NCBI GenBank assembly: GCA_910588015.1
Contig: CAJUOK010000003.1
Span: forward strand, 48,193-112,192
Reading direction: 5' to 3'
Source: an uncultured Christensenellaceae bacterium
GTDB taxonomy: Bacteria; Bacillota; Clostridia; Christensenellales; UBA3700
DNA: 64,000 bases
Shown here one piece after another: positions 8,502 to 31,438 of this stretch (position 1 is its first letter; every line of letters starts with the position of its first letter). Position numbers and translations under genes: made by a program. The notes under the pieces were generated by a model. The model was given only the letters and a program-made list of their open reading frames with translations, was not told where the DNA came from and searched no databases.

Positions 8502-8502
8502 A

Positions 8503-9054: not shown

Positions 9055-9069
9055 ATTCCCTCCTCAAGG

Positions 9070-9384
9070 TCACAGGCGCAGACCGCCCATAGCCTTTTCT
9101 ATTATTTCTTGCCTTTTTTGTTCTTCGACGCGGGCGTTGTTGGCGTCGATTTGCGCAAGTATCTTTTCTTTGTTTTTTACACTGCTTTGCACTGCAAAAT
9201 CCAACGCCCTTTTGTCGAGATTCTTATAAGGCAAAACTGCTTGAAAAGACGGAGACTTTGCCGAATTGTGCAATTCGTATCTGCAAGTTCCCCTGTCGTA
9301 ATAGATTTTGTAATTTTCGTCTATGCTCTTTATTCTTGCCGATATATCGAACAAATCGTCGGTTATCTCCGTCAGTCTTTCCAT
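9070..9384 (-). CDS. Hypothetical protein (104 aa).
   Basis: ORF in track. Confidence 0.35.
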   Translation of the reverse strand: MERLTEITDDLFDISARIKSIDENYKIYYDRGTCRYELHNSAKSPSFQAVLPYKNLDKRALDFAVQSSVKNKEKILAQIDANNARVEEQKRQEIIEKAMGGLRL

Positions 9385-9399
9385 AATTGCCTCTTATTT

Positions 9400-9615
9400 T
9401 CAGCTCACGGTGATACCGCTGAGTTTTGCCTGACCGATAGGCTTATCGCATATCATATCGGCGTACTTGACGAGAGTTGCACCGTAAGTTGCGCTGCCCG
9501 CCTTTTGCTTGATGACTTTGCCGTTGTCGCCCTCGAGCCACCGCTTGACCTGTGAGAAGTCTAAACAGAAATAAGGGCGATAGATAAAGGTAAAAACGGG
9601 CATCTCCCACCCCAT
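9400..9615 (-). CDS. Hypothetical small protein (71 aa or shorter); first gene of the late-like fragment.
   Basis: ORF in track; follows a strong terminator. Confidence 0.25.
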   Translation of the reverse strand: MGWEMPVFTFIYRPYFCLDFSQVKRWLEGDNGKVIKQKAGSATYGATLVKYADMICDKPIGQAKLSGITVS

Positions 9616-9668: not shown

Positions 9669-11081
9669 TTATTTCTTATAAACAGAGAGAGTTTTCGTAA
9701 TATCGGAAGTGAGGTTTTTGCCACTCCTCTTTTTGTCGCTCGATGTTTTTGCCAAGCTGAACCAATATTTACTGCCTTTATAAACCAGTTTGTAGTGGGT
9801 ATTATCGCTCGTAATTTCAAACCCCACACGCTTTAATTCAGCCAGCTCTTTTGCGGAAAGTTCCTCGCCATCCGCAAAGACGGACTTTACCACATCGAGC
9901 ATTTCCTTGCCGTTTCCTATTATTTTATTATGCGCCAACAGGTCAGTTATAAGCTCTTTCTGCCGAGTGTCTTTTGAACCGCAGTTCGACAGTGCCTTCT
10001 GCAAAATCGACACAAGCAAATCGTGCTGTTCACCATCAAAGAACTCTGGAATGGATGAAGGTTCTATTATCGTCTGCACCGCTTCGCTTTTTGTGAGCGC
10101 AGTTTGGAGACTGTTGCACTTTGCGGTCAAAGACATATTTTCTTGAACCAAGGCAGCAATTCTCGCCTCCGCCTTTTTTAATTTTTCATCTAGGGTTTCG
10201 TTATCACCAAGTGCTTCTTCTGCCAAGGCTGCACTCTCTTTCGCTTCCTTTCGAACTTGCTCGGCGTGTAATGCTTCCCATGTAGGCGCATCCGTATCCA
10301 CGGCAGAAGTTACAAAACGCTGAACTTCATTTGCTATCTGCTTATCAAGGGGCGCGCCCAGGTATGCATTCCGCTTCCGAAACTGTCTAGGTCTTCCGCC
10401 CTTGGTGTAAATACAAACTGCACCATTGAAGGGTGTTGCGTGGTTTGCCCTATCTTTCAAAAGCCGAGTGTATTCGTTATCGCAAACCACCACATACGCA
10501 AACCCCGCAAGTTTCTTTGACAGCGTATATTCCTCTATTTCCGTTGCCCGTGTATCGAAGTATGTAGTAGCTAAAACCAACGGAAGCTCATCGTCATATT
10601 CTTCCCGTATTGCTCCCGCTATCCAGTCTATCAGCTCATTCGTAGGTTCAACGGGTTTTGAAGTTATAGGTACTTTCGGCTGTTTAAGGAAGCCGCTATC
10701 AACGAAGGAGCGTATAACATCCGTGCGCATCTCGGGAGCTTCGTCAAAACGAGTAGCATCACGGGAACAGTCAATGTGGAAATAAACTATCTTTCCAACG
10801 GAACTGCATTCAAAGATAATCTCCGTAGTCCAAGTCTGCTCGTGGAACACTTGAGCAATCTTGAAAAGCGTGTAAACTTTTCCGTCTTTTTCTATACGGG
10901 AAGTGTCCGCCGTGCAATACTCCGCTTCCAAGTGTACACCGATTTTATCAGCGCAGGCTTCAAGTTGCTCTGCCACTGCCTTGCACGGTCCAGCCTCTGT
11001 CAACCACTTATTAATAATATTGAAATACTCGCTTTCGGAAAAGGAGTCGACCATTTTAACTTTCGTAGAAACTACACGCAT
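9669..11081 (-). CDS. Hypothetical protein (470 aa), no recognisable domain; start overlaps the stop of the RNase III-like gene.
   Basis: ORF in track; acidic coiled-coil segment in the middle; last gene before the terminator. Confidence 0.5.
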   Translation of the reverse strand: MRVVSTKVKMVDSFSESEYFNIINKWLTEAGPCKAVAEQLEACADKIGVHLEAEYCTADTSRIEKDGKVYTLFKIAQVFHEQTWTTEIIFECSSVGKIVYFHIDCSRDATRFDEAPEMRTDVIRSFVDSGFLKQPKVPITSKPVEPTNELIDWIAGAIREEYDDELPLVLATTYFDTRATEIEEYTLSKKLAGFAYVVVCDNEYTRLLKDRANHATPFNGAVCIYTKGGRPRQFRKRNAYLGAPLDKQIANEVQRFVTSAVDTDAPTWEALHAEQVRKEAKESAALAEEALGDNETLDEKLKKAEARIAALVQENMSLTAKCNSLQTALTKSEAVQTIIEPSSIPEFFDGEQHDLLVSILQKALSNCGSKDTRQKELITDLLAHNKIIGNGKEMLDVVKSVFADGEELSAKELAELKRVGFEITSDNTHYKLVYKGSKYWFSLAKTSSDKKRSGKNLTSDITKTLSVYKK

Positions 11082-12137
11082 CAGTCGTTCCTCGCGTTCT
11101 CGTGATTAAGAATGGAGCGGAGCATTTCGTATGCGGCTAACCGTTTAGCTTCCTTTTTCGAGCTTGCTTCATCATAATAGCAATCTTCATATTCTTCAAT
11201 ACTACATTCGCAAGTCCATACGGGATTACCATCGTCATCGTGGTCTTCTTGGAACTCATAAATAGGAAAAGAGAAATACCCCTTTTGTGCAAGCTCCTGA
11301 AGCTGACTCACTGCCTTCTCGAGAGTGGGTTCATCAATTTCATCTTCCATCGTCCGAAGCAAACCTTGCTCGTCCAAGTAATCATACGCAAGCTCTGCCG
11401 CAGCCATTCTTGCCAGGCTCTTGGAATACCCAAAGCCAACAAACGGCGCACCATTATCTATGCGTAATTCACAAACGATATCCCCTTCGCCTTGCTCCAT
11501 ACGCCTTCTAGTTCCAACTTGTATAGAGCGCATATTGCAGTGATATTCATACCTTGAATTATAGAATTTATAAAACGGCAACTCTCCTACACGCTTCTGC
11601 TGCCACTGCTGAATAATGGAAACATAATCCTGGTCTGTGCCGAAGCCATTTTCCAAGTAACAATCAATGTGGAGCATCATTTCTACCGCATCTTGCATTG
11701 AATCCATATCCCAATCACTGTCAAGGGCAACTGCGCCGAGTATGGCTTCAAACAAGTCCTCTTTTACATTCGTTTTGGACATTATTTTTTCTGTCCCCCT
11801 TGCCCATTATCAAATAATCTGTAAAACCCATCTCATCAATGCGTTCTGCCAACATCTTACTTTCCACAAGGTGCTTCTTGAACTCCGTGAGCTTCCCCTC
11901 ATTGTGTTCACACTCGTACTCTTTGCCATCGTTGATTTCGCCGTAATACTCCGTCAAAACCTTAACGATTACCAAGTCGAGAACCTTATCGCCTATAAAC
12001 TCCAACACTTCATTGTTTTCGCCATCGTGCGTTTCTTGCGTATAACTTTTCCGCGTAAACGCTTGCTGCAACAACAATCTGTTCTTGAACTCGTACCCGA
12101 TTTGTGATTCAATTTCATCGTACTGTTCATCCTTCAT
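11081..12137 (-). pseudogene. rnc-like: RNase III homolog (catalytic domain plus two dsRBDs) split into two overlapping ORFs (11748..12137 and 11081..11782) by a frameshift at a T6/A6 homopolymer (11785-11790).
   Basis: N-ORF: IGYEFKNRLLLQQAFTRKSY...NEVLEFIGDKVLDLVIV is the RNase III signature, ending ...GKGDRKNNVQ. C-ORF: KEDLFEAILGAVALD is the second catalytic motif, followed by two dsRBD motifs (GFGYSKSLARMAAAELAYDYL and EASSKKEAKRLAAYEMLRSI). Removing one A from the A6 run joins the frames with the expected motif spacing. Confidence 0.6.
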
Positions 12138-12399
12138 AATAAAAATACCTCCTGTGTTTTTTCACAGAGGGCATAGAAAGAGCCTGACGAAATATAGACT
12201 ACGCCCTTGTAGCCTCGCCAGGCATCCACTCGATAAATGGTGTTATATAAATCACTCGTCCTTGATTCCAGTCACTTGCATAACAGGTCACAAATCCAAT
12301 ATGCTTTACATCCAACTATTTATGTCGCAATGCCTTCTCTGTACTTTCATTATATCAAACTCGACATAATCCGTCAAGGGGTATGTGCCATATTTCTCA

Positions 12400-15999: not shown

Positions 16000-16665
16000 C
16001 TAATCGGTAATATAAATAAAGCATTTATCTCTGTTCCGCTCGTAAACGAGGAAAGGAATCTCCGCTTTAGCCAACATCTCGTTATTCACTTTTTCATAAT
16101 TGTAGGTTTGAAACCCAGGGTATAACTTTATCAATCTATCCCTTGCCTCTTTTGCGCAAAAGAAATCGGTTGTGTCATCTGCATCAAACAGCTCTTTGAA
16201 CTTGACAAGCAAGCACGGAATTTCAATGACCTCCATAAATCTCTGCTCTTCGTCAACACTGATACGCTCTTCCTTTTCGCCATCTACATAACAAATCTTT
16301 CTCCCATTCATCCAACGAAAATGAACCTTGTTAGATTTTATGCTCTCATCAGAGAACCCAAGAAACTTGTACATTTTTTCTCTGTTGATTTGGCTGATTT
16401 TTACTACCTTTTCCGAAAAAACATCCCTGGGGATTTTCGCTATGCTCTCATCCTTCAAATGAAACCGCATGATAGAATACGGGTTAAATTCGTCCCAATT
16501 ATGACCGTCTCCAAGCAATCGCTCATCATCGGAAACATTAAAATATTTAACCTTTTCCAATTCGGCTGCGGACAGCTTTTCAAATTTATAAATGTGGATA
16601 TCAACACTCATTTTTAATCGTCCTCCACGACAAGCACGTTGATAATTCCGCTGTAATAGGTACAA
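16000..16665 (-). CDS. Hypothetical protein (221 aa; the start may be the internal Met at about 16611).
   Basis: ORF in track. Confidence 0.4.
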   Translation of the reverse strand: MYLLQRNYQRACRGGRLKMSVDIHIYKFEKLSAAELEKVKYFNVSDDERLLGDGHNWDEFNPYSIMRFHLKDESIAKIPRDVFSEKVVKISQINREKMYKFLGFSDESIKSNKVHFRWMNGRKICYVDGEKEERISVDEEQRFMEVIEIPCLLVKFKELFDADDTTDFFCAKEARDRLIKLYPGFQTYNYEKVNNEMLAKAEIPFLVYERNRDKCFIYITD

Positions 16666-17435
16666 GCATCCAAAGCAACTAAACCTTCCTCGGTGTACGG
16701 CTCAAACGCCTTTTCCCAGTTCTTTCTGCTTTTGTTGGGGAACTCCTTATATTTCTGTAAAATGTGCGCCCATCCCCAGGAGCAATGCCAATGACCGCAA
16801 ACTATTGTCTTCCCAGGTTCTTTAATATTATGCTTGTGTGCAAGTTCCATCCCGTTAAACCAACGAGCCTCTTCCCACTGTTCTTCGCTTGCGCTTCGCC
16901 AGTCTGCGTTATACTTGTACTTCGTAGCCTTGGGATTATTAGGATACACGCTTTTTTCAACCATGCAAGGAATCCATCCGTGGACGAAAATATAATGCTC
17001 GGTTTCGAAGTAGTTTTTCATCGCCGGGATGATTGTTTTGATAAACGGCGTGTTCACCATTTTAGTTACAAATTTCAATGGGTTATGCATAACATCATAG
17101 TCCGACATTTTCACGAGCTGTTCGCAAGTGTCAATTGTGCCGTTGCTGTAATGATGCGAATCACGGAACCGAAAGGTATAAAATCCTATATTAATAATCA
17201 AATCAAGAATTAAGTCCTCGTGGTTGCCTTTAATAAGGATAACCTTGTCCATTTCCATCAGTTCCAATATGTACTTCTGAAGCTGAACCGCCTCGGGGCC
17301 TCTATCCATTAAATCCCCACAAACAATCAATTTATGGTTTTCATCTTTGGGGTTGAACCCTTTTTCATTCAGTGCGTTAATCAATTCATAATAATAGCCG
17401 TGAACATCGGCAACAACAAAATACTTCATTCTCAT
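16614..17435 (-). CDS. Calcineurin-like metallophosphoesterase, PPP-family Ser/Thr phosphatase (lambda-PPase-like).
   Basis: Motifs ADVHG, GDLMDRG and GNHE at canonical spacing. Confidence 0.7.
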   Translation of the reverse strand: MRMKYFVVADVHGYYYELINALNEKGFNPKDENHKLIVCGDLMDRGPEAVQLQKYILELMEMDKVILIKGNHEDLILDLIINIGFYTFRFRDSHHYSNGTIDTCEQLVKMSDYDVMHNPLKFVTKMVNTPFIKTIIPAMKNYFETEHYIFVHGWIPCMVEKSVYPNNPKATKYKYNADWRSASEEQWEEARWFNGMELAHKHNIKEPGKTIVCGHWHCSWGWAHILQKYKEFPNKSRKNWEKAFEPYTEEGLVALDACTYYSGIINVLVVEDD

Positions 17436-19760: not shown

Positions 19761-20126
19761 TTATCGTGAGTTCTTGCGCTTGGAAAGGAAATGATACTCC
19801 CTCATCGCCCTCTTCACCGAACTCGCACATTCAATCATAACCCGACGTTCGTATGGAGAGCAGTCGTGAAATAAGGCATCATATTCCTTAATATCCACAA
19901 CGAGGTAGTCGTTCAAACTCTCCGCCAAAAGCATATCCGTAGTTACCCCCAAGGCATTAGCAATAAGTATGAGCGTGTCAAGGCTCGGACTTTTAATCCC
20001 GCTCTCTATGTAACTGACATAAGTCGGAGTTTTGTCTATAATCTCCGACAACTTTGCTTGCGACAACCCCTTTTTCTTGCGAATTGTCTGAATTCTTTTA
20101 CCCAAAAGAATATAATTGAGTGCCAT
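19761..20126 (-). CDS. cI-like repressor (XRE-family HTH, 121 aa).
   Basis: KKKGLSQAKLSEIIDKTPTYVSYIESGIKSPSLDTLILIANALGVTTDMLL; divergent from a cro-like gene across an operator-bearing spacer. Confidence 0.65.
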   Translation of the reverse strand: MALNYILLGKRIQTIRKKKGLSQAKLSEIIDKTPTYVSYIESGIKSPSLDTLILIANALGVTTDMLLAESLNDYLVVDIKEYDALFHDCSPYERRVMIECASSVKRAMREYHFLSKRKNSR

Positions 20127-20180
20127 TTTGAATTACCTCCAAAAATTTTGTTATCTCAATTATAGTCCGCAGTAGATATT

Positions 20181-20252
20181 ATCGTCTATGGTAGATTTCA
20201 AATATCGCCTATAGATGATAAAATTGTAATGATAATATGCTCCATAGGCGAA
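20181..20252. promoter_or_regulatory. Three operator-like copies of ATCGYCTATRG: 20181-20196 forward, 20204-20219 forward, 20237-20252 inverted. Divergent promoters include TTCAAA-N17-TAAAAT for cro and a TATAAT for cI.
   Basis: Read directly in the 130-bp cI-cro spacer. Confidence 0.45.
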
Positions 20253-20265
20253 GGAGGTGCTTGTA

Positions 20266-20628
20266 ATGGATGAGATTATAGATTCAAACCAACTCAAAGA
20301 AATTGGGCAGCGCATTCGTTCTGCACGACTCGCCGCGGGACTCACACAATCGGATTTAGCCTTCTCCGCAGACATTCGAACTTCGCACATCAGTGATATT
20401 GAACTTGGCAAGAAGCAATTAAGCATCCTTACCTTTTGTAAAATTATAGAAGCACTTCGAGTTTCGGCGGACGAAATCCTCCGCCCCAACACTCCAGAGG
20501 TCAACCGTATTTATCAAAACGAATTCTCGCAGTTGCTTCAAGACTGCACCCCCACGGAAATTGAGTCGCTTCTCAAAATCGTAAAAGAGATAAAAACCTC
20601 TCTGCATAACAAAACTGATAATGACTAG
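20266..20628 (+). CDS. Cro-like / XRE-family HTH regulator (start at the ATG after AAGGAGG; the track begins at GTG 20257).
   Basis: LKEIGQRIRSARLAAGLTQSDLAFSADIRTSHISDIELGKKQLSILTFCKIIEAL. Confidence 0.6.
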   Translation: MDEIIDSNQLKEIGQRIRSARLAAGLTQSDLAFSADIRTSHISDIELGKKQLSILTFCKIIEALRVSADEILRPNTPEVNRIYQNEFSQLLQDCTPTEIESLLKIVKEIKTSLHNKTDND

Positions 20629-20654: not shown

Positions 20655-20911
20655 TGGGTTCTATTTATTTTAACATCTGCGCGAATTTTCCCGTGAATAC
20701 ATTTGTCAAGTTTTCCCCGTCAAATTCCATCTCTTTTTTGACATTTGTATAATTCTTCATTGAGTGGACGTCTATTCCACTCTTTTTCTTTTTGAAAACT
20801 CAATCTTTTTTGCTTTTTATAAACTAGTGGTTTATGTACTTGACCGCTGGTTTATTCTTTTTTTCCGCGGGTGCTTTTATAATGGTCATAGTTTTAACTT
20901 AAGAGGTAACT

Positions 20912-21565
20912 ATGGCAAACGAAATAAAAAGCACAACCCCTGACAAAACCGATAACCTTGATGCAACCGAGATTGAACTAGTCAATAAATTTAACGAAAT
21001 AGCAAGAACCCCACAATTATTTTTTTCAGCAGATACCTCGTCCGAACGGGCAAAGAAAATCGCACAACACAAAGTGTGGTTGAGTAGCATCCGTCACGAG
21101 TTCCCTAGCCCCGCCACTCATTTTAAGGTCGGTGTTTATATTCGTTATTTCAACCAAACCAAGTACGATGATTACTTGGAAACCCATAAGGCTATGTTTA
21201 TGGACGCCATCTCGCTCTGCCCCAACTGGGAGTTCGTTGGCTACTACATTGATGAAGGATCAACTGCACCCAATATGGAAACCGCTGCCGAATGGTCTCG
21301 GCTTCTCAACGATGCCACGGAAGGAAAGGTTGATTTAATCATCACCCAAAAAGTCTCCAATGTATCAAAGAAAATTCACGAAGTTACCCTTTGCGCAAGA
21401 TTGCTTGCTGCAATGGAACACCCCGTTGGTATCTACTTCCTTTCCGAAGATATTTATACCTTGGCTTCGTATTATCAACACGATTTGAGAGATACATTCT
21501 TTTTACCCAATAACGACACGGAGGCGTTGCCCGAAGGAACAGATAAAAAAGGCTTACTGAAATGA
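20912..21565 (+). CDS. Resolvase-catalytic-domain paralog lacking the catalytic serine; predicted inactive.
   Basis: KVGVYIRYFNQTKYDDY...CPNWEFVGYYIDEGS...GKVDLIITQKVSNVSK aligns with the next gene (RVGIYVRVSTDDVRQ...HPNWTLIKIYPDEGISG...GKLDLIITKSVSRFARN). The motif Ser is replaced by Phe and the SRFAR motif is lost. ATGA overlap with the recombinase start. Confidence 0.55.
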   Translation: MANEIKSTTPDKTDNLDATEIELVNKFNEIARTPQLFFSADTSSERAKKIAQHKVWLSSIRHEFPSPATHFKVGVYIRYFNQTKYDDYLETHKAMFMDAISLCPNWEFVGYYIDEGSTAPNMETAAEWSRLLNDATEGKVDLIITQKVSNVSKKIHEVTLCARLLAAMEHPVGIYFLSEDIYTLASYYQHDLRDTFFLPNNDTEALPEGTDKKGLLK

Positions 21566-23469
21566 TAGATACCCAAAGAAAAGAAGAACGAGAACGGAAA
21601 AAAGATAAAACCCGTAAACGAATGCACGTCGAGATTGACCCCGAGAATTATGAGTACACCCCGGCGAAAAAAGCTATCGATTATTACGATAATAACACAC
21701 CCCAGCGTGTAGGAATTTACGTCCGTGTTTCAACCGATGATGTCAGACAAACCACCTCTTTTGAATTGCAAAAACAATATTATGAGGAATTCGTCCAGAA
21801 GCATCCAAATTGGACGCTCATTAAAATATACCCCGATGAAGGTATAAGCGGTACTTCCCTCCGCCATCGTGATCAGTTCAATCAAATGATTTCAGACAGT
21901 CGAGCGGGAAAACTCGACCTTATAATCACAAAGAGCGTTTCCCGTTTTGCAAGAAATGTCGTTGACTGTATTGGATTGCCCCGCGACCTTGCGGAGCTGA
22001 AACCACCTGTCGGCGTTTTCTTTGAGTCCGAAGCAATCTTCTCGCTCAATGATGATTCACAAATGGCATTGTCTTTCGTTGCTACTATGGCGGAAGAAGA
22101 ATCGCATACCCGTAGCCGCAGTATGGAAACCTCTCTCCGTATGCGATTAGACCACGGTATTCCCCTCACGCCCAAATTGCTCGGTTATATGCACGATGAA
22201 GATGGCAACCTCATAATCAACCCCGAGGAAGCCCCCACAGTCAAGCTCGCTTTTTATATGTATCTTTACGGATATTCCACGCAGCAAATTGCGGACACTT
22301 TCAATGAGCTTCAGCGCAAATCATACCTTGGAAATGTCAAATGGACATCAAGCGGAATTGTGCAGATTTTAAGAAACGAACGGCACTGCGGTGATGTAAT
22401 CACAAGAAAAACTTTCACACCAAACTACCGCGACCACAAGTCAGTGCGAAACCGCGGAGAACGTCCTCAAAGCACATACCGCAAGCATCACGAAGGAATT
22501 GTATCAAGAGATGATTTCATTGCTGTGCAACGGATGTTGGATAACGCCAAGTACCGCAATAAATCATTTCTGCCAGAACTGCGTGTCATTGAAAGCGGCA
22601 TATTGAAAGGCTTTGTGGTAATCAATCCTAGATGGGCAGGGTTCAAAGAGCAAGATTATTATGAAGCAGCGCAAAGCGTGTACAAGCCTAGCAACGAACA
22701 GTCCGATACACTTGAACTTCCCCCGGCAGAAATACCTATCCCCATTGAAGCAGGAGACTTTGATTTGCGAGGCTTTGAAATAACCCGTTCAGAGTTCTTT
22801 GATAGCAACCAACGCCCCAGCATTACATTTGCGGAAAAGAAGATAAAATTCAGCACAGACTGCGTTCGCAAATTCGGTAACAACAACTATGTCGAACTTC
22901 TCATCAACCCTATTGAAAAGAAATTTGCCGTAAGAACCACAACCAAGGAAAATCGTCAAGCGGTTATCTGCTCACAGTTAGATGCAAGAAAATACCTACC
23001 AAAGACAATATCCGCTTCCGCTTTCAGCGATACCATCTTTTCAATTTTCGGTTGGAACCCCGAATGCAAATACCGCATCATCGGTTCACTTTACGAAGAA
23101 GGCAACCAAATCGCCTATATCTTCGACACCGACAATTCCGAGATTTTTTTTAAGTCTTATGTGTTAACAAGCCAGGAAGCAAACGAAGCTGGCGGTAAAA
23201 CAGGTATCCAACCTTATACTCCTTCTGGGAAACGCATCCGTGCAATACCGCAAGAATGGACGAACTCGTTCGGTAAACCCTACTACCAACACGAACAGAC
23301 TCTCGCTGCGTTAGCCGCACAAAGTGAAGCCGATTGGCAAATCCGAATGGAAGGACAGCTCGTTGAGACGGGCAGAAAAATAAATGTGACTGGCTTTGAA
23401 GATTTGAAGCAGTACATAAACCAAGAATTAAATGGCACACTGCCACAGGAGGTAAACCCTAATGAGTGA
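21562..23469 (+). CDS. Large serine recombinase (635 aa) with an extra C-terminal domain (recombinase D).
   Basis: VRVSTDD catalytic motif, KSVSRFARN, recombinase domain; C-terminal about 230 aa homologous to the downstream ORF. Confidence 0.8.
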   Translation: MIDTQRKEERERKKDKTRKRMHVEIDPENYEYTPAKKAIDYYDNNTPQRVGIYVRVSTDDVRQTTSFELQKQYYEEFVQKHPNWTLIKIYPDEGISGTSLRHRDQFNQMISDSRAGKLDLIITKSVSRFARNVVDCIGLPRDLAELKPPVGVFFESEAIFSLNDDSQMALSFVATMAEEESHTRSRSMETSLRMRLDHGIPLTPKLLGYMHDEDGNLIINPEEAPTVKLAFYMYLYGYSTQQIADTFNELQRKSYLGNVKWTSSGIVQILRNERHCGDVITRKTFTPNYRDHKSVRNRGERPQSTYRKHHEGIVSRDDFIAVQRMLDNAKYRNKSFLPELRVIESGILKGFVVINPRWAGFKEQDYYEAAQSVYKPSNEQSDTLELPPAEIPIPIEAGDFDLRGFEITRSEFFDSNQRPSITFAEKKIKFSTDCVRKFGNNNYVELLINPIEKKFAVRTTTKENRQAVICSQLDARKYLPKTISASAFSDTIFSIFGWNPECKYRIIGSLYEEGNQIAYIFDTDNSEIFFKSYVLTSQEANEAGGKTGIQPYTPSGKRIRAIPQEWTNSFGKPYYQHEQTLAALAAQSEADWQIRMEGQLVETGRKINVTGFEDLKQYINQELNGTLPQEVNPNE

Positions 23470-24199
23470 TGATGTAACCAAGAAAGTCGAAATCGAATCC
23501 GTGCCTTATGACATGGGAAACAGCGCACCTACTTTGCGTGAGGACGATGAGCTTTTGGATATGGGTGAAGAGTTTAATTTTGACGATTTCCAAGTCGTGA
23601 GACGAGAATTCTTTGCACATCTCCACGAGCCTTCCGTGTCGTTTAACAACTGCAAGTTCTATGTCAATTCGGCTTGCCTTACAAGGTTTCCCGATTCGGG
23701 CTATGCGCAAGTGCTTGTTAATAGCTCCAAAAAAATACTTGCTCTCCGCCCTTGCAACGAAGGTTCTCGTGACTCTTTTATGTGGTGTACCGATGCCAGC
23801 AAAGGCAAGCGTAAACCCAAGCCTATAACCTGCAAGCTGTTCTTTGCAAAAATCGTTGAGCTTATGGGTTGGAATCCCGACTATCGTTACAAACTGCTCG
23901 GCAAGCTCATCCACGCTAATGGCGAGTACCTTATAGCATTTGACTTGACTTCCACGGAAGTTTATCAGAAGACTTTCCCCGAAGGCACAAAGCCGAAGGT
24001 GTCGAGAACGCCTGTGTTCCCTTCGGATTGGCAAGACCAGTTTGGCTTGCCGTTCAACGAGCATCGTCAGTCTATGCAAATCAATATCTTTGACGGTTAC
24101 GCAATCTACGCCGTTAAGGAAGCAGAAAAAACCGATAACCCCCAAACCAGTAATACCGAGGAAACCCCCTCCCTCACTGTTGCAGTCAGCGAGGAATAA
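23462..24199 (+). CDS. Stand-alone paralog of the C-terminal domain of recombinase D (245 aa).
   Basis: FGWNPECKYRIIGSLYEEGNQIAYIFD...PYTPSGKRIRAIPQEWTNSFGKPYYQHEQT aligns with MGWNPDYRYKLLGKLIHANGEYLIAFD...VSRTPVFPSDWQDQFGLPFNEHRQS. Start overlaps the recombinase stop. Confidence 0.5.
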   Translation: MSDDVTKKVEIESVPYDMGNSAPTLREDDELLDMGEEFNFDDFQVVRREFFAHLHEPSVSFNNCKFYVNSACLTRFPDSGYAQVLVNSSKKILALRPCNEGSRDSFMWCTDASKGKRKPKPITCKLFFAKIVELMGWNPDYRYKLLGKLIHANGEYLIAFDLTSTEVYQKTFPEGTKPKVSRTPVFPSDWQDQFGLPFNEHRQSMQINIFDGYAIYAVKEAEKTDNPQTSNTEETPSLTVAVSEE

Positions 24200-24240
24200 C
24201 CCTTTTCAAAGGAGAATTAAATCATACGGAGGAGATATCA

Positions 24241-24633
24241 ATGATTAAACCAACAACTCCCACAACAATATCCATAGACTTAAAAAAATACAGAATACGC
24301 ATTCACAAATCGACAATTCACTTGCTGGGAGATCCCAAATACATCCAACTGCTCGTTAAACCCGCAAGCAGTCAAGTTGCAATTCGCGCCGTAGAAAAAG
24401 AAACCCGCGGAGACCAGAACTTCAAAGTCGATTCAAAGCGAATGAAATCGGATAATTCATACGAGCTATACAGCCAAACATTTATAACCAAGCTCTGCAG
24501 CATTGTTGAAGGGCTGGAACACAACTACACCTATCGCCTTACGGGTGAAATCATAGAATCACAGAAAGTGGCTTTATTTTCGCTGAAAACCATCAGTCGT
24601 GTCGAGCCTACGGAGACGGACGATGAACAGTAA
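24241..24633 (+). CDS. Hypothetical protein (130 aa).
   Basis: GGAGG RBS; overlaps the next gene. Confidence 0.4.
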   Translation: MIKPTTPTTISIDLKKYRIRIHKSTIHLLGDPKYIQLLVKPASSQVAIRAVEKETRGDQNFKVDSKRMKSDNSYELYSQTFITKLCSIVEGLEHNYTYRLTGEIIESQKVALFSLKTISRVEPTETDDEQ

Positions 24634-25570
24634 GCCGATAATCTTAAAAATAGACAATAACTTCAAAACGCTCATACGTCCGTTACGCAAACAAGAGTAT
24701 CGACAGCTTGAGTCTAACATTCTTCAAGATGGCTGCCGTGAAGCAATTATCACCTGGAACGGTATCATTATTGACGGACACAATCGTTATGAAATATGCC
24801 ATAAGCATCAGATTCCCTTCGAAGTTCACGAGATGGACTTCGAGTCCCGTGAAGATGTTATTGCGTGGATATGCGCCAATCAGCTCGGCAGACGGAACAT
24901 AAGCGAGGAAACCCGCCACTTCCTAATCGGTATGCAGTACGAAACCGAGAAGATGATTGCAGGTAGGAAAAAGCAAGAAGGTGAAAACCCGTTCAGTGGT
25001 CTACCTCTCGAAACAGACTATCATCCCTCCCGCCATGTAACCGCAGAGCGGATTGCAAAAGAAAACAATATTTCTTTCGGCTCGGTTCAAAAATATGCCA
25101 TTTATGCTCGTGCTATTTCCGAAATACAGCGTAAATGTCCCGACTTGGTGCCATTAATTTTATCTGGTAACTGCAGAGTTTCACATAACTACATTGTGGA
25201 TATTTCCAGGCTTTCCCCAGAAGAACTTCAAGAGTTGGCGAAACGTTTAGAAAAGGAAAACAAACCCTACCTTCGGTTCAGCAACACACGAGCAATAATA
25301 CAAGAAAATATTGAGAAAGCACTCAACGCTCCCGTCCAACCCTCTCAACCTTCCGTTAAGGATATGCCGACATTTGACCCTGATGCTTCCGTTACTGAAC
25401 TCACACTTACAATCCCCTCTTGGCTCGGTTCTATGAAACGCACAAACGAGCATACGGATTTCAATATCGTGTCCAATACCGCAAAAGCCAAATTAACTAC
25501 GCTCTTACAGGAGTTCGAAAAAACTCTCGTAGATATGATTTCAAAAATGGAGAAACCTACCGATGAATGA
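24599..25570 (+). CDS. ParB N-terminal (ParB/Srx) domain protein with a C-terminal HTH-like region.
   Basis: IITWNGIIIDGHNRYEICHKHQIP carries the ParBc DGHxR motif. Confidence 0.5.
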   Translation: MSSLRRRTMNSKPIILKIDNNFKTLIRPLRKQEYRQLESNILQDGCREAIITWNGIIIDGHNRYEICHKHQIPFEVHEMDFESREDVIAWICANQLGRRNISEETRHFLIGMQYETEKMIAGRKKQEGENPFSGLPLETDYHPSRHVTAERIAKENNISFGSVQKYAIYARAISEIQRKCPDLVPLILSGNCRVSHNYIVDISRLSPEELQELAKRLEKENKPYLRFSNTRAIIQENIEKALNAPVQPSQPSVKDMPTFDPDASVTELTLTIPSWLGSMKRTNEHTDFNIVSNTAKAKLTTLLQEFEKTLVDMISKMEKPTDE

Positions 25571-26483
25571 ATTTAGCTATTTCGTTCCCAATGTGCATTT
25601 TGAGCAAATACCAATCAAGAACCTTGTATCCAACCAGGAATACCAACGCAATCTCTCCCGCGCTCATATCAATCGTGCTGCGGCACATTTCGATTTATAC
25701 CAAATCAACCCCGTTAAAGTAAGTCGGCGTGATGGCATCAATTATGTATTCAATGGACAGCATACCATAGAAATAGTTGCACTCGTCTCCGGCTCTCGTG
25801 ATACACCCGTTTGGTGTATGATTTACGATGACCTTTGCTACGAACATGAAGCGGACATCTTTGCCAACCAAATGAAATATGTCAAAGCTCTCTCCGCATA
25901 CGAAATTTTTATGGCAAACATCGAAGCGGGCAACGATGACCAGCTTATGATTCGAGACTTGGTCGAGTCATATAACTTAAAGGTCAGTGCCGCCAAAGCA
26001 CCTGGTAATATCTGCGCCATATCCGCTCTTGAGATGATATTCACTCGCTATGGTTACCACTGCCTTAACCGCGTCCTTCGTTTAATCATTGGAGCCTGGG
26101 AAGGCGATGAAAACTCATTCAGCGCAAACATAATGAAGGCGGTTGCTAAATTGGTCATTGTTTATGGCGATATGCTCGATGATGAGATGTTTAAGGAAAA
26201 GCTCGGTGCAATATCCATCAAGTCTCTTTCTCGAACCGCCAAGGAAATACGCTCTGGTTCGCTCGGCTATGCTGAAGCAATGGTAATTGAATACAACGGA
26301 AAAAAGAAAACATCGGCGGGTAGGCTTCCTATCAGTATGCTCTATGCCAAAAGTCTCGCCTCTCTCGATGCGGTTATTGAAAATGAAACGCCCTACGAAG
26401 TCAACGATGACACCGTGGAGAAAGCACGAACCGATGAAACCGATGCTGATGACGATACCGAAGTCAACGATGATGAAGAATAA
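25563..26483 (+). CDS. Second ParB N-terminal domain-like protein (306 aa) with an acidic C-tail.
   Basis: NQEYQRNLSRAHINRAAAHFD...VFNGQHTIEIVAL (DGQHR-like); the stop codon overlaps the 26-bp palindrome. Confidence 0.45.
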   Translation: MNEFSYFVPNVHFEQIPIKNLVSNQEYQRNLSRAHINRAAAHFDLYQINPVKVSRRDGINYVFNGQHTIEIVALVSGSRDTPVWCMIYDDLCYEHEADIFANQMKYVKALSAYEIFMANIEAGNDDQLMIRDLVESYNLKVSAAKAPGNICAISALEMIFTRYGYHCLNRVLRLIIGAWEGDENSFSANIMKAVAKLVIVYGDMLDDEMFKEKLGAISIKSLSRTAKEIRSGSLGYAEAMVIEYNGKKKTSAGRLPISMLYAKSLASLDAVIENETPYEVNDDTVEKARTDETDADDDTEVNDDEE

Positions 26484-26508
26484 ATGCGCTAAAATTTTAT
26501 GCGCATTT
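26483..26508. repeat. 26-bp near-palindromic motif AATGCGCTAAAATTTTATGCGCATTT; an identical second copy lies at 57153-57178.
   Basis: Exact 26/26 identity read in both places; 7-bp arms (AATGCGC/GCGCATT) around a palindromic TAAAATTTTA core. Confidence 0.75.
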
Positions 26509-26516
26509 ACAACTCA

Positions 26517-26578
26517 ACCATAACAGAGAAAAGTCCGCTGTCTCCGCTTGGAAGCATAGTGGACTCTGTTTTTAGTTT
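26517..26578. terminator. Probable bidirectional terminator between the convergent ParB-like operon and recombinase C.
   Basis: CAGAG...AGTCC-loop-GGACT-CTG followed by TTTTTAGTTTTT on plus; T-rich on minus too. Confidence 0.4.
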
Positions 26579-26590
26579 TTATAAATTACC

Positions 26591-28114
26591 CTATTTCTTT
26601 CCCCAGACCTTCTCATAAACCACTTCGTCTATCTCATCCTCCTTGTTGTGATAGTAATAAGTTTTGACCTTGGCAACTTGCCCGTTTGTCAATAAAAACT
26701 CAAAGTTCTCTCTGCCATAAATTGTTATCTTCTTGACAACTGCCTTGAAGATTTCAGGATCGAACTCCGTCAACTCGGTTGGTCGCATAATAACCTTGTT
26801 ATATCTTCGTAGGTCGTTTTCGGCTTCGATATTCATAGCATTTGTACGCAGCAGTTCCTTTCGCCTATCTTCCGCTCTGACGATTTGATTCAACAGTCGG
26901 TTATACTCGCCCTCCACAGGCCCCTCCAACAGCCCCTTGGCTTGAAGTTGAAGGTATGTGCGTTCCTGTGCAAGAAGCCTATCCAACTCGGCGTTAAACG
27001 CCACCAGTTCGCCCGACAAAGGCATCTCTACCAACCGCCGTTTTGTCCCTCGTAAGTCATTGAAAATCCTTATAAAAATGTTCTGCAATGTCTGCAACCG
27101 AACGCTAGGACTTTCACATTTTCGGAAACGCTCTTCATCGTGTCCACCGCAGACAAATCGATATTGCTGTCCATTTGTGAAACGCCTTGTGTAAGCGTGT
27201 CCGCACTTACCACACCGAATTGGAACTCCTTCAAGTGGGTTGTCCCCTTTCGGCTGAAAGACATCTACTTTCGTTTGCTTTTGCCTTACTTCATTTGCTC
27301 TTTCCCAAAGCTCCCTACTCACAATAGGCTCATGGTGGTTTTCAACATAGTATTGAGTTATCTGCCCCGTATTCTTTACCGCTCGACCATTCAGCAAGAC
27401 TCGCTTTTCCATCAAGCAGTCCCCTTTATACTTCTCATTCTTGATATAGTAAAGTATCGTTGAAGGCTTGAATGTTTTCCCCGTTGAGGTTCGTATGCCT
27501 TCTCGGTTCAGCTTTTGGCAAATAAGCGTGGAATGTCCCGTATCCGCATACTCTTCAAATATTCGTTTAATAATAGGCGCTTGAACTGGGTCGGGTACAA
27601 GTTCACCATACTCTAACTTATAGCCGTAGGGTGTGTTAGGGTTTAGTATCATCATCCCCTTTTCATACCTACGCTGAAACCCCCATCGTACCGATTCGGA
27701 AACATCCTCCGCTTCTTCCTGTGCCACGTGTGCCATTGTTACGAGTATGATATTATTCCTATCCTTAAGGGTATCAATGTTTTCTTGCTCGAAATAAACG
27801 GATACTTTTAGTTCTGTCAGCCGAGCGATGGCTCTCACGATGTCAAGCGTGTTCCTTCCAAATCGTTTGATTGACTTGCAGAGTATTCGATCTACAAGTC
27901 CCAGTTCACAATCGGTCAGCATTTGCAAGAAAGCCTCACGCCGATTCAAGTACCTACCGCTTATTCCGTTATCGACGTATATTCCGCAGTTAACCATATG
28001 CGGAGTCGTATCCATTACCTCGTTGAAGTGCCGAATTTGCGATTCCAGACTGACCGTTTGGTCTTCTGTACTAACTCTAACATACGCTGCCGTTCGATAT
28101 CGTTGTTCGCTCAT
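26591..28114 (-). CDS. Large serine recombinase C (507 aa), paralog of A.
   Basis: AAYVRVSTEDQ, KSIKRFGRN, zinc-ribbon recombinase domain (CGKCGH...C), C-terminal coiled coil. Confidence 0.8.
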   Translation of the reverse strand: MSEQRYRTAAYVRVSTEDQTVSLESQIRHFNEVMDTTPHMVNCGIYVDNGISGRYLNRREAFLQMLTDCELGLVDRILCKSIKRFGRNTLDIVRAIARLTELKVSVYFEQENIDTLKDRNNIILVTMAHVAQEEAEDVSESVRWGFQRRYEKGMMILNPNTPYGYKLEYGELVPDPVQAPIIKRIFEEYADTGHSTLICQKLNREGIRTSTGKTFKPSTILYYIKNEKYKGDCLMEKRVLLNGRAVKNTGQITQYYVENHHEPIVSRELWERANEVRQKQTKVDVFQPKGDNPLEGVPIRCGKCGHAYTRRFTNGQQYRFVCGGHDEERFRKCESPSVRLQTLQNIFIRIFNDLRGTKRRLVEMPLSGELVAFNAELDRLLAQERTYLQLQAKGLLEGPVEGEYNRLLNQIVRAEDRRKELLRTNAMNIEAENDLRRYNKVIMRPTELTEFDPEIFKAVVKKITIYGRENFEFLLTNGQVAKVKTYYYHNKEDEIDEVVYEKVWGKK

Positions 28115-28141
28115 TTCTACCTCCTATTTTTGGTATGACAC

Positions 28142-28170
28142 ACATTACCAAAATCACGCCATATAGTCCA
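28142..28170 (-). promoter_or_regulatory. Promoter of recombinase C: CGCTGGACT-N17-TAATGT.
   Basis: Same architecture as five other promoters in the window. Confidence 0.45.
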
Positions 28171-28238
28171 GCGAATTGCCCCAAACAAGCGAAAAGAGCA
28201 GACAGCATTTTGCCATCTGCCCTTCGCTATCAAACGCC

Positions 28239-29852
28239 TCATTCGATTGAATCGGTTATTGTGATGCCGCAACCGAAATCATAGGTTAATTCCTTTCCGT
28301 CAACTGTAACTCGGTTTACAATTTTGCGGAACATATCCCCATCAAACTCCGTCAGTTTTCCTTTCTCTGCAACCATATCCCATAACGCCTGGAATCGGTC
28401 ATTCGTATGTTCAAGGTCAACTACTTGCAGCGAACGCTTTTTCTGCTCTTGCTTTAGTGCTTCTATTTCGGTGATGAGCTGTTCTCTTTCACGCTCCCCG
28501 CCAATAAGGTCTTCGGCTGTTTGAGCAGTTTTAACCGCCTTGACAAGCTGTCTTTCCTTGGAAGCTATCTTCTTTGCAAGTTCATCGTTCGCTTGGTCAG
28601 CAAGCCGTTCGGTCAGCGTTTCTTGAATGCTCTCGGTTATTTTCTTGACCATTCCTTCCTTATCTTCGATGAGCATATTGACCACTCGAACGAAGGAATC
28701 GTACAGCTCCGATTCTTTGACCGCTAACTGTGTGCATACCGAGTTCCCATTCAGTTTGTGGTTTGAGCAAGTCCAAGTTTTTATATACTTATCACCGCAT
28801 TGATACCCGTGCCTACGGAAAATGCAACCGCATTGATAGCAGTACACCTTGCTCGATAAAGGATACTTTGAAGAATAACCGCCCCTACCCGATTTAGTGC
28901 AAGACCGTAAGCTACGGCGGTATTCCATTTCACGCTTTACCCTTTCGAACATCTCATCGCTGATTATTGGCTCGTGGTCATCTTCGACATAGTATTGCTG
29001 CGAGTCGGCAGATGCTGCCCGCTTCTTTTGAACCCAAGGTCTTACGATTGTTTTCTGCAGGAGGGCATCGCCTATGTACTTTTCATTCTGCAACATCCCT
29101 TCTATAGTGCTTTCGTCCCATCTATCCAATCCAGAAGGAGACTTGATGTTCCGCCGCTTCAATTCCTCACTTATCAGTCTGAAACTCAACCCCGAGAGGT
29201 ATAGCTCGAATATGAGTCGTACCACTTCCGCTTGCTCTTTGTTGATAACATACTCGTGGTTGAGGACATCATATCCATAGGTCTTTGCTTTTCTTACAAA
29301 CCCTTGCTCGTTTCTGCGTTGGATACCCCAATTCACGCTATCGCTCAAGCTGTCTGATTCTTCCTGGGCGATTGATGCGTACATTGTCAGCATAAAGTTG
29401 GTTCGCTTATCATCTTGCAGACTGTTGAGCTTTTCCTTTTCAAACACCACGGGGATACGTTTCTCTCGCAACTGCTCTATGATGGTCAAACTGTCCAGCA
29501 CATTTCGAGCGAAACGGCTGACCGACTTGACGAGTATCATATCTATCTTTCCGTCCAGCGCATCTTTTATCATCTCACGAAACTTCGCCCTCTTTTTCAT
29601 ACTTCGTCCCGAGATGCCTTCATCAGCATAAACGCCAACCATCTCCCAGTTGGGGTTGCTTAAAATGAGCCTTGTGTAATACTCCATTTGGGACTTGAAA
29701 CTCGTCTGTTGTTCTTCTCTGCCCGTGGATACCCTGGCATAGGCTGCAACTTTCTTTTTTTGCATTATTATGGGCGAATCATCATCCACAAACAATCGTC
29801 TTGAGTTTGTTGCAGGGATTACCCTTATTTTTCTTTCATCTTTCATCAGCAC
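28239..29852 (-). CDS. Large serine recombinase B (about 510-537 aa), TnpX/TndX-like subfamily, related to D.
   Basis: AAYARVSTGREEQ, KSVSRFARN; start overlaps the end of A. Confidence 0.8.
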   Translation of the reverse strand: MLMKDERKIRVIPATNSRRLFVDDDSPIIMQKKKVAAYARVSTGREEQQTSFKSQMEYYTRLILSNPNWEMVGVYADEGISGRSMKKRAKFREMIKDALDGKIDMILVKSVSRFARNVLDSLTIIEQLREKRIPVVFEKEKLNSLQDDKRTNFMLTMYASIAQEESDSLSDSVNWGIQRRNEQGFVRKAKTYGYDVLNHEYVINKEQAEVVRLIFELYLSGLSFRLISEELKRRNIKSPSGLDRWDESTIEGMLQNEKYIGDALLQKTIVRPWVQKKRAASADSQQYYVEDDHEPIISDEMFERVKREMEYRRSLRSCTKSGRGGYSSKYPLSSKVYCYQCGCIFRRHGYQCGDKYIKTWTCSNHKLNGNSVCTQLAVKESELYDSFVRVVNMLIEDKEGMVKKITESIQETLTERLADQANDELAKKIASKERQLVKAVKTAQTAEDLIGGEREREQLITEIEALKQEQKKRSLQVVDLEHTNDRFQALWDMVAEKGKLTEFDGDMFRKIVNRVTVDGKELTYDFGCGITITDSIE

Positions 29853-31384
29853 ACCTCCGTAACTGCTTTTATGTCAATAGATTGTATTTCATCTTCGCTT
29901 GTTGCCCAGTAGATGATACTCACATATGCTACCTCGCCCGAAGCCAGGTGGAATGCAAGGTGTTCTCTGTCCACTACAACGATTCGGCGTACTATCTGCT
30001 CGAACACTTTTTCATCGAACTCGGTCAGTTTGCCAGTCCGCATTACCGCAGAATTGTAAACCTTCAAATCGTTTTGAGCCTTCACGTTTTGTCCGTTGGT
30101 CTCCAACATAGCCTTCTTCTGTTCTTCTGCCTTGACGATGCGGTTGAGCAGTTTTCTGTACTCTTCCTCAATCTCACCGTGAAGCAATCCCCTAGCTTGG
30201 AGCTGAAGGTATGTCTTTTCTTGGTTGAGCATTCGTGTAATCTCGTTATCGAGTTCTCGAACCTCATCTGTTACTTGCATCTCCATCAAGGTCTTTCGCT
30301 TGCCTTCTATCATATTAAAGATTGCAACGAACACCCGCTCGAGTGTTTCCAACTTGACACTCTCGCTTCTGCAAGCATTCATTCCTCGGCTGCTTTTAAG
30401 GTAGCAACCATACCTTGTTTTCTTATCAGACCGCTTTATTCGTTGAAAGTTATGTCCGCACTTTCCGCACACGATTTTTCCCTTAAACGGGTCGAACTCT
30501 CTGTTCTCGGCTCGAACATACTCCGATGTCTTATGCCTTTCTATCATCCGTTGGCAAGTATCCCATAGCTCTCGGCTAACAATCGGTTCGTGGTCGTTCT
30601 CGACATAGTATTGTTGAGCTTCGCCCATATTCTTTATTTTCTTGCCATCAGCCACCACATACTTTTGGAGCATCGCATCTCCCTTGTACTTTTCATTTTT
30701 GATTATATAAAGGATTGTGCTTGCCAAGAACTGCCGTCCGTGCGCTGTGGTATATCCATCCTTATTTAATCGTCTCGCTATCTCCGCCGTGCCGATTCCC
30801 TTTGCGTAACTCTCATAAATGCGCTTGACGATTTTCGCTTCATCTGGCACGACAACTAATTGCCCATCTTCGTTGAACTTGTACCCGAGAGGTGTATTGG
30901 GGTTGACTATCAACTGCCCTTGCTCGAACCGCTTCTTGAAAGTCCATTTGATTGCTTCGGATTTTTCCTCATATTCCTCTTGCGCTATCTGCGCCATGGT
31001 AACAAGCAGAATATTGTTGCGGTCATTGATGGTATGCAAATTCTCTTGTTCGAAATACACTGGGATGTTCAGCTCTGTCAGCCTTGTAACCGCCCTTATT
31101 GTATCCAAAGTGCATCGTCCAAACCTCTTTATCGATTTGCATAAAATGAAATCAATCTTATGCAACTCCGCATCTTGCATCATCCGCTTGAAGTCCTTTC
31201 TTGCCCCAATGAATCGTCCGCTTATTCCGTTGTCGATGTAGCAACCGCAGTTTACCATTAGCGGGTCTGCATCCATCACTTCATTAAAGTATCGAACTTG
31301 CGATTCCAGGGATACTTCTTGCCCATAGTTTTTGCTGACTCGGCAATAAGCAACCGTTCGTTTTTTTGATTCGTCCATTGGCAT
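29846..31384 (-). CDS. Large serine recombinase A (about 512 aa from ATG 31384; the track GTG start is at 31411).
   Basis: AYCRVSKNYGQE, KSIKRFGRC, CGKCGH zinc ribbon; AGGAGG RBS 5 nt before the ATG at 31382-31384. Confidence 0.8.
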   Translation of the reverse strand: MPMDESKKRTVAYCRVSKNYGQEVSLESQVRYFNEVMDADPLMVNCGCYIDNGISGRFIGARKDFKRMMQDAELHKIDFILCKSIKRFGRCTLDTIRAVTRLTELNIPVYFEQENLHTINDRNNILLVTMAQIAQEEYEEKSEAIKWTFKKRFEQGQLIVNPNTPLGYKFNEDGQLVVVPDEAKIVKRIYESYAKGIGTAEIARRLNKDGYTTAHGRQFLASTILYIIKNEKYKGDAMLQKYVVADGKKIKNMGEAQQYYVENDHEPIVSRELWDTCQRMIERHKTSEYVRAENREFDPFKGKIVCGKCGHNFQRIKRSDKKTRYGCYLKSSRGMNACRSESVKLETLERVFVAIFNMIEGKRKTLMEMQVTDEVRELDNEITRMLNQEKTYLQLQARGLLHGEIEEEYRKLLNRIVKAEEQKKAMLETNGQNVKAQNDLKVYNSAVMRTGKLTEFDEKVFEQIVRRIVVVDREHLAFHLASGEVAYVSIIYWATSEDEIQSIDIKAVTEVC

Positions 31385-31409
31385 ATATCCTCCTTTTTTA
31401 GTATGACAC

Positions 31410-31438
31410 ACATTACCATAGAACCAAAACTATATCCA
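31410..31438 (-). promoter_or_regulatory. Promoter of recombinase A: CGCTGGATAT-N17-TAATGT.
   Basis: Read directly; shares the CTGGA -35 region with the moron-array promoters. Confidence 0.45.

Follow-up and report, generated by a model that had tools for sequence, protein, structure and literature searches.

A serine recombinase operon with inactive and partial paralogs and two ParB-fold proteins in Ca. Heliusvirales phages

The stretch of DNA considered here, referred to below as the window, comprises 64,000 nucleotides of contig CAJUOK010000003.1 from an uncultured Christensenellaceae bacterium and carries a prophage of the Ca. Heliusvirales. Within it lies a plus-strand operon of six open reading frames (ORFs), O1 to O6, at positions 20912-26483, in which a serine recombinase (O2) is encoded together with a catalytically dead paralog of its catalytic domain (O1), two stand-alone copies of its C-terminal domain (O3 and O4) and two proteins assigned to the ParB fold (O5 and O6). 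The favoured reading, given a probability of about 0.4, is that the operon specifies an autoregulated recombinase complex on the lysogeny side of a temperate phage, controlled by decoy paralogs. An earlier reading of the same DNA, made without database searches (the sequence-only reading), had described a recombinase accompanied by catalytically dead copies of its own domains and coupled to two proteins of the ParB/Srx fold, and this core is confirmed by the paralogy and by ortholog alignments, the copies being either dead or limited to the DNA-binding part. The individual folds are all known except that of the C-terminal domain common to O2, O3 and O4. The combination is absent from the PADLOC defence models, from plasmid records and from the literature searched, where no paper describing it was found, in agreement with the earlier remark that the architecture was not known to be a described system.

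The recombinase and its paralogs

O2 (21562-23469, plus strand, 635 amino acids) combines a Resolvase catalytic domain (Pfam PF00239, E 5.7e-22) and a Recombinase domain (PF07508, residues 221-327, E 7.5e-21) with a novel C-terminal domain of about 200 amino acids. It groups with large serine recombinase (LSR) integrases and Ccr recombinases in NCBIfam and PHROG and matches the solved structure PDB 3g13 with an E value of 1e-29. An alignment of 49 distinct O2 orthologs, 42 distinct O1 orthologs and the three LSRs encoded next to the operon shows that R55, S57, D92, S96, G97, R128 and R131 are kept in every O2 sequence (49/49). This invariance argues for real catalysis. Judged by these residues, O2 is able to catalyse recombination, and it descends from a large serine integrase. 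The zinc ribbon/coiled-coil module (PF13408), present in all three neighbouring LSRs, has no Pfam match in O2, and the region from which it is absent (residues 399-581) is homologous to O3 and O4; the control module of the integrases is replaced in O2 by a new beta-rich domain. Pfam also finds no HTH_7 domain in O2 at E <= 0.01, and at 635 amino acids the protein is not short in the manner of the small serine recombinases.

O1 (20912-21565, plus strand, 217 amino acids) is a paralog of the O2 catalytic domain, with 30% identity over 114 amino acids (E 4e-19) and a Pfam Resolvase score of 22.2, just under the cut-off of 23.3. The nucleophile serine is deleted and the SRFAR motif reads SNVSK. 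These losses, already pointed out in the sequence-only reading, hold throughout the family, as the serine is absent and asparagine stands at the position of R128 in 42/42 orthologs. A catalytic serine at an alternative position is not seen either, the only conserved serine columns of O1 being 149, 152 and 178, none of which corresponds to the nucleophile. The identity of 52-70% across the 42 orthologs indicates a maintained pseudo-enzyme and not a decaying gene.

O3 (23462-24199, plus strand, 245 amino acids) had been taken for a stand-alone copy of the recombinase C-terminal domain, and it does match O2 residues 399-581 with 26% identity and an E value of 3e-26. O4 (24241-24633, plus strand, 130 amino acids), previously listed as just a small protein, turns out to be a minimal third copy of the same core, found by BLASTP against O2 (E 3e-6) and by hhalign against the O3 family (probability 94%, E 1e-7, 98 columns). 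The domain shared by O2, O3 and O4 weakly resembles MraZ and B3 domains, and the swapped-hairpin DNA binders AbrB, SpoVT and MraZ were considered as relatives. Pfam finds nothing in O3, O4 or O5. The O3 family comprises about 2000 protein clusters and the O5 family about 2650, nearly all of them labelled just 'hypothetical protein'; the few names on record in the sources are generic ('recombinase family protein', 'integrase', 'hypothetical protein').

The six ORFs are tightly coupled, and this coupling is kept across the compared loci. Four of the junctions overlap (by 4 to 35 nt), and only the claim that all of the genes overlap or abut has to be given up, as O3 and O4 are separated by 41 nt. 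The start of O5 is best placed at the ATG at 24623, which is favoured by homologs called at 315 amino acids; the mechanical ORF opens at a GTG at 24599.

The ParB-fold proteins

O6 (25563-26483, plus strand, 306 amino acids) is a DUF6551 protein (PF20188, residues 25-252) with a score of 111.3 bits against a cut-off of 26.8. It matches PHROG 1033, which is labelled 'ParB-like partition protein', and has a weak DGQHR/DndB-like match. O5 (24623-25570, plus strand, 315 amino acids) is recognised through its predicted structure. An AlphaFold (AF2) model built with 44 homologs has a pLDDT of 80, and its top Foldseek match is 5k5d (pNOB8-like ParB-N, E 6e-5, about 250 columns), followed by 7bnk, 7nfu and 6t1f, which represent Myxococcus ParB, Noc and Caulobacter ParB. 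According to this model O5 is a ParB fold followed by a helical, DNA-binding-like region. Sequence methods do not see it: Pfam ParB_N has no match to the window protein and reaches only E about 0.1 in 2/28 orthologs, and sequence and profile searches of the PDB return no ParB match. For O6 the same searches against solved structures give no ParB or other meaningful match. The description of O5 and O6 as two proteins with a ParB N-terminal domain thus stands for O5 by its model and for O6 through DUF6551, but O5 escapes Pfam ParB_N and the two profiles are unrelated; a mutual paralogy of O5 and O6 was rejected on an hhalign probability of 0.08. No ParA partner is seen among the ORFs scanned.

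Prophages are reported to carry orphan ParB-like proteins frequently, and fusion proteins of DUF6551 with the ParB-CTPase domain bind CTP or ATP (bioRxiv 10.1101/2025.10.10.680097). O5 and O6 resemble orphan proteins of the ParB-CTPase fold (KorB, Noc, the DUF6551 fusions) in that the O5 model matches ParB, Noc and pNOB8 ParB-N, O6 has DUF6551 and ParA is not seen. They differ in that O5 lies below Pfam ParB_N detection and its box II equivalent reads GHNRYEI instead of GERRxRA.

Occurrence and conservation

The sequence-only reading made its proposal depend on the presence of the operon in other genomes, and the same layout recurs in about 50 fetched loci of Clostridia/Bacillota genomes and in phage records. 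It is found in 54 genome loci from Christensenellaceae, Oscillospiraceae, Lachnospiraceae, Erysipelotrichaceae, Finegoldia, Anaerotignum and others; fetched loci are designated by L-numbers where they have to be told apart. It is also present in Coprococcus phage NatCom_10489 and 18 other phage records; 16/19 of these are Ca. Heliusvirales exemplars, and the remaining 3/19 are fragments of fecal 'Bacteriophage sp.' without annotation. The genes keep one order and orientation throughout, with a divergent pair of XRE-type helix-turn-helix (HTH) genes upstream. Downstream there are usually two or three convergent canonical LSRs and, beyond these, genes for lysis and tail proteins. Integrated copies of the phage occur in contigs of 234-337 kb and in chromosomes.

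The best-conserved members are O2, O3 and O6 (58-78% identity for O6). Between loci O2 and O6 are about 47-80% identical and the LSR matches about 30-40%, and this stronger conservation of the operon proteins would suit a substrate that lies within the phage and is itself conserved. O2 to O6 are nearly the sole plus-strand genes of the complete genome NatCom_43249 and diverge there from an HTH/ImmA-like block. The record of this genome (L087, PV036411) begins 9 nt past the palindrome end of the 97% identical L088 (PV036422) and lacks the HTH gene and most of the palindrome of L088; from this comparison the palindrome, described below, may be a recombination or assembly breakpoint.

The module is absent from 72,556 plasmid records, which yielded only remote homologs of DUF6551 and a single remote O3-like match, and a plasmid partition module was discarded on this ground. 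A known anti-phage defence system was likewise discarded, since none of the six proteins matches a PADLOC model.

The conserved palindrome and the regulatory region

A conserved palindrome, ATAAACC-N4-GTCAA-(3-5 nt)-TTGAC-N4-GGTTTAT, lies upstream of O1 at 20819-20855 and may act as an operator or accessory site. The 64 kb window contains a single copy against 0.01 copies expected, and the arms co-vary between loci. In nearly all loci it stands about 40-60 nt before O1, and in L048, L049 and L052, which lack O1, it stands about 60 nt before O2. In the clade L001/L047 an unrelated palindrome occupies the same place. A comparison meant to find the binder through a protein that co-varies with the palindrome type gave no candidate, as none groups L048 with the window type instead of with L001/L047. 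The palindrome abuts a weak -35 position and is followed after 22 nt by a predicted promoter element, a TATAAT -10 box at 20878-20883 (plus strand), read from the sequence and found at the same 22-nt spacing in 15/25 distinct upstream regions. G.U bias in the arms, which could separate an RNA from a DNA role, is 30 versus 16 and not decisive. No known RNA family is found in the 19.5-27 kb region at E <= 0.1.

Upstream of the palindrome lies the lysis/lysogeny switch. An XRE-family HTH protein (19761-20126, Pfam HTH_3, E 3e-17) leads the minus-strand early operon as one arm of the switch and adjoins the operon in most loci. A second (20257-20628, Pfam HTH_3, E 1.8e-12) is encoded on the same strand as the operon and is syntenic in most loci. 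The divergent region between them (20127-20256) contains promoter-like hexamers on both strands and, read from the sequence, three copies of TCGYCTATRG, putative operators, probably of the switch, which are distinct from the palindrome. The second HTH gene is followed by a terminator-like GC-rich hairpin with a T-run (20762-20782, plus strand; terminator scan), and in other loci equivalent GC-rich hairpins lie upstream of the palindrome.

At the other end of the operon the sequence-only reading had placed a parS-like site. A palindrome does exist there (26482-26508) and is followed by a hairpin with a T-run (26523-26581), but its sequence is not conserved among loci and its behaviour is that of a terminator. 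A hairpin of some kind follows O6 in most loci, each time with an unrelated sequence, and the two hairpins with A/T runs between the convergent O6 and the first LSR gene (26482-26581) are read as a terminator region; a parS assignment was rejected.

A proposed mechanism

In the favoured reading O1 to O6 would form one nucleoprotein recombination machine of the lysogeny region. The palindrome would serve as its operator or accessory site and would be bound through the shared C-terminal domain. O3 and O4 could compete with O2 at the palindrome or bridge O2 molecules there, and O1 could cap or modulate the interfaces of the O2 catalytic domain. Together these actions of O1, O3 and O4 would stand in for the coiled-coil control that O2 has lost and make the operon autoregulated, with all six genes expressed from the promoter that the palindrome abuts. 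Close to that site, O5 and O6 may load as nucleotide-switch DNA clamps or organisers. The output would be a recombination step of the phage genome tied to lysogeny, such as excision control or monomerisation/cyclisation, and not primary integration. The regulation of O2 by its paralogs is proposed by analogy with the accessory subunits of resolvases and with the domain shared by the Mu repressor and transposase. A heteromer or directionality role for the paralogs, suggested earlier, is an inference only.

Several observations weigh against this reading. Each of its binding, heteromer and recombination steps is inferred. O1 is missing from the clade L001/L047/L048/L049/L052 and is dispensable there. 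The centre of the palindrome varies between 3 and 5 nt, and between 6 and 8 nt in the clades without O1, and the palindrome folds as an RNA hairpin (-16.8 kcal/mol, z -3.55) followed by a U-run. Because of the variable centre and the hairpin with its U-run, the palindrome is treated here as an operator, accessory site or attenuator and not as a proven crossover site; it may be mainly an attenuator/terminator, or the operator of the adjacent HTH protein. NatCom_43249 has neither the palindrome nor the HTH gene. Finally, in several loci host genes begin 0.5-1 kb past O6 and there is no second recombinase close by, an arrangement that would suit O2 as an integrase as well; in L045 (RecD2), L050 (FeoB), L049/L052/L074 (comM) and L012 they begin within about 0.4-2.5 kb of O6 with no canonical LSR between.

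The wider claim, that this is a new kind of serine recombinase machine with its built-in controls (coiled-coil, accessory-site subunits) supplied as the separate paralogs O1, O3 and O4, coupled to two nucleotide-switch ParB-fold proteins and serving as a core lysogeny-control or genome-maintenance device, is put forward tentatively and must be regarded as somewhat doubtful. If true, it would provide a natural case in which decoys made from the domains of a serine recombinase regulate that enzyme, which is relevant to the engineering of large serine integrases, and a recombinase-linked role for the orphan ParB-CTPase fold. It would also be a core device of one of the most prevalent phage orders of the human gut. 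Ca. Heliusvirales phages are widespread and ancient in the human gut (PMC11283538), and the text of that report makes no mention of recombinase, integrase, ParB, resolvase or lysogen. Understanding the module would explain how Heliusvirales prophages are kept or released.

Relation to known recombination systems

O2 shares with the LSRs (phiC31, Bxb1, A118, SPbeta SprA, CcrA/B) a location in the lysogeny region of temperate phages and, in its N-terminal half, the Resolvase and Recombinase domains with all catalytic residues; this half is up to about 41% identical to the neighbouring LSRs. Unlike them O2 has no zinc beta-ribbon/coiled-coil, carries the novel domain instead and is co-encoded with dead and partial paralogs. 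The stand-alone copies of its C-terminal domain recall Mu repressor c and MuA, which share a DNA-binding domain, and the Tn5 inhibitor Inh, a truncated transposase: the part of the enzyme that binds DNA or regulates it is encoded a second time, by itself and next to the switch, and is a plausible competitor at the same site. These are DDE transposases, in contrast to the serine recombinase O2, and there is no sequence relationship. In Cluster A mycobacteriophages (PMC12714336), integrase or parABS cassettes are found at one prophage-inheritance locus. The likeness lies in recombinase and ParB-type genes at a prophage-inheritance position; there they are alternatives and include ParA, whereas here recombinase and ParB-fold genes stand in one operon without ParA.

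Integration and the integrase alternative

It is possible, but unlikely, that O2 is the true integrase/excisionase of the prophage, the sole one in phages without an adjacent LSR trio and one of several alternative integrases in the window, with O1, O3 and O4 as directionality factors. The grouping of O2 with LSR integrases and Ccr recombinases speaks for such a role, as do the host genes shortly after O6 without an intervening canonical LSR. A related suggestion, that the operon is an integration-excision-maintenance module, fits its position beside the HTH switch and at the prophage edge in several loci and is unproven.

The prophage ends bear directly on this alternative. The left end in the window is sharp at 9541/9542 (…GAGCCAC|CGCTTGACCTGTGAG…), and identical copies end there too (L062, L077-L083). 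The same phage is found in at least four different flanks, including a gene that encodes …VKR|WLEG…, a TerL-like gene inside which it lies in another prophage, and a position upstream of a 49-aa ORF beside the host PFK/PPK genes. The phage end donates a ribosome-binding site and an ATG with 21 codons that read in frame into the gene it interrupts. This junction lies about 11 kb from the operon, beside a block of 470-aa, RNase III and 129-aa genes (9669-12369). In the IMG/VR relatives L083-L086 the 470-aa block comes immediately after the LSR genes, and in L084-L086 O6 stands 2.5 kb beyond the block. The order LSRs, 470-aa block, O6 on the circular map of L084-L086 means that integration beside the 470-aa gene would place the operon and the LSRs at opposite prophage ends, which explains the host genes after O6 (RecD2, FeoB, comM) without O2. 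Since relatives have the junction block directly behind their canonical LSR trio, the main integrase is probably not O2, and primary integration is more likely to be carried out by the neighbouring trio. Searches of IMG/VR and of the fetched loci with the end sequences found neither attP nor the right prophage end.

A further point for an integrase is a block made up of an HTH gene, O2 to O6, three small ORFs and the element end, 7.8 kb long in L048 (7510-15316) and L049 and shorter in L052, where the three small ORFs are absent. The HTH/O2-O6/element-end block is 90-95% identical among Erysipelotrichaceae, Eubacteriales, Finegoldia and the metagenome contig L074 (92-95% in three families). 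It lies in comM in three cases and ends at the identical nucleotide in two different targets, and an O2 at least 90% identical is encoded in Peptostreptococcus equinus (cluster of P0166). Sharing of this kind suggests either that the host range is very broad or that the module is exchanged. Against an integrase role, L075 and L076 carry the same right-end segment but lack an O-module within 6.7 kb, and this right end has no similarity to the palindrome. An autonomous transposon was entertained for the block of L048/L049/L052 and is weakened by the same right-end segment and by the left flanks, which are homologous methyltransferase-like genes and suggest a mosaic prophage.

In Anaerotignum neopropionicum DSM 3847 (L012, 6054-12946) two HTH genes and intact O1 to O6 have host genes on both sides, namely an AraC regulator, a permease and a nitronate monooxygenase on one and AMP-binding, condensation and MFS genes on the other. 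The 20 kb there contain no further phage gene, and direct or inverted repeats around the island are nothing above chance. As evidence that O2 is a self-sufficient integrase, both the 7.8 kb block and this island are ambiguous. A 7-mer, GGTCAAG, is common to the left end of the window phage and a palindrome arm in similar register and is a low-weight lead in the same direction. Against an integrase stand two properties of O2 itself. Its conservation is far higher than that of integrases adapted to differing attB sites, and it lacks the zinc-ribbon/coiled-coil module by which LSRs tell attP from attB.

Resolution, silencing and inversion

A second alternative, rated as quite unlikely, is a system for multimer or concatemer resolution and segregation of the phage genome while it replicates or persists as an episome, in which O2 would act as a resolvase at the upstream palindrome and O5 and O6 as orphan ParB-type segregation or condensation proteins. 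In the res-recombinase arrangements of Tn3/gamma-delta (res-tnpR), pSM19035 (beta recombinase) and RK2 (parCBA, with the recombinase ParA) the recombinase gene follows a single palindromic site abutting its promoter. Here, too, the recombinase operon adjoins one conserved palindrome, which overlaps the promoter region of the operon, and control would come from additional subunits that do not catalyse. Further support comes from the missing coiled-coil directionality module of O2, the high conservation of proteins and site, the ParB-fold partners and contigs of about 50-51 kb that carry the module at varying positions, as circular permutation would give. The differences are that the extra subunits are separate genes (O1, O3 and O4), that O2 has no HTH_7 at threshold and that the centre spacing of the palindrome varies, which a crossover site would not tolerate. 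Two sites per replicon, as in a res pair or in hix/gix, are not seen either, with one palindrome in 64 kb and no convincing inverted-repeat pair. The lack of ParA among the ORFs scanned, the near absence from plasmid records and the integrated state of the phage also count against this explanation.

About equally improbable is a third alternative, in which the operon would serve mainly in transcriptional silencing, immunity or superinfection exclusion through ParB-like clamps and AbrB-like binders, with recombination by O2 being secondary. KorB, a relative of ParB, is a CTP-dependent repressor. The operon is a neighbour of the HTH switch and runs counter to almost all other phage genes, its palindrome borders on a weak -35 and keeps a fixed spacing to the -10, and the shared domain weakly resembles MraZ and B3, all of which would suit such a function. 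The invariant catalytic residues of O2 in 49 orthologs argue against it, as do the lack of a PADLOC match and the fixed synteny within the lineage, unlike that of variable defence cargo.

An inversion or diversity-generating switch, raised in the sequence-only reading, has very little chance of being correct: O2 does match PHROG 125 'DNA invertase', and serine recombinases without the coiled-coil module include DNA invertases, but the conserved palindrome is single in the window, the inverted repeats in 19-32 kb are short, imperfect and inside coding sequence with no convincing pair among them, and no locus has the region in the alternative orientation.

Neighbouring genes and other features of the window

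The three canonical LSRs (507, 537 and 521 amino acids) are encoded on the minus strand at 26591-31411, convergent with the operon, and each combines a Resolvase, a Recombinase and a Zn_ribbon_recom domain. Relatives have two or three LSRs, to which those of the window are 30-41% identical. The early minus-strand operon contains a gene for a calcineurin-like phosphoesterase (16614-17435). The recombination directionality factor of Bxb1, gp47, belongs to the calcineurin-like phosphoesterase superfamily, and the window protein could be the directionality factor of the LSR trio.

The position of the 470-aa block, far left in the window prophage and between the LSRs and O6 in L084-L086, amounts to a large rearrangement at the attachment region. 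The RNase III gene of this block (11081-12137) is split in the window into two ORFs (129 aa, and 233 aa with a dsRBD only) and is a single 353-aa ORF in L062 and L077-L082; the split may be a frameshift or a pseudogene.

Outside the Heliusvirales prophage, positions 1-9541 encode DUF7934, a BhlA-type holin and an SPFH/zinc-ribbon protein, and sister contigs of this region encode an 1870-aa TIR/LRR protein. This part of the window looks like another phage-like or defence-bearing element that hosts the prophage. The replication/late region of the prophage (about 51-58 kb in the window, and L067) contains a fusion of ParB_N with an N6_N4 methyltransferase, a Dcm-type methyltransferase of 803 aa, a fragment of a SAM synthetase, an HNH protein and a toxin-antitoxin pair of the PhD/ParE kind. 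A LexA-like/UmuC/YolD cassette is situated past the end of the window.

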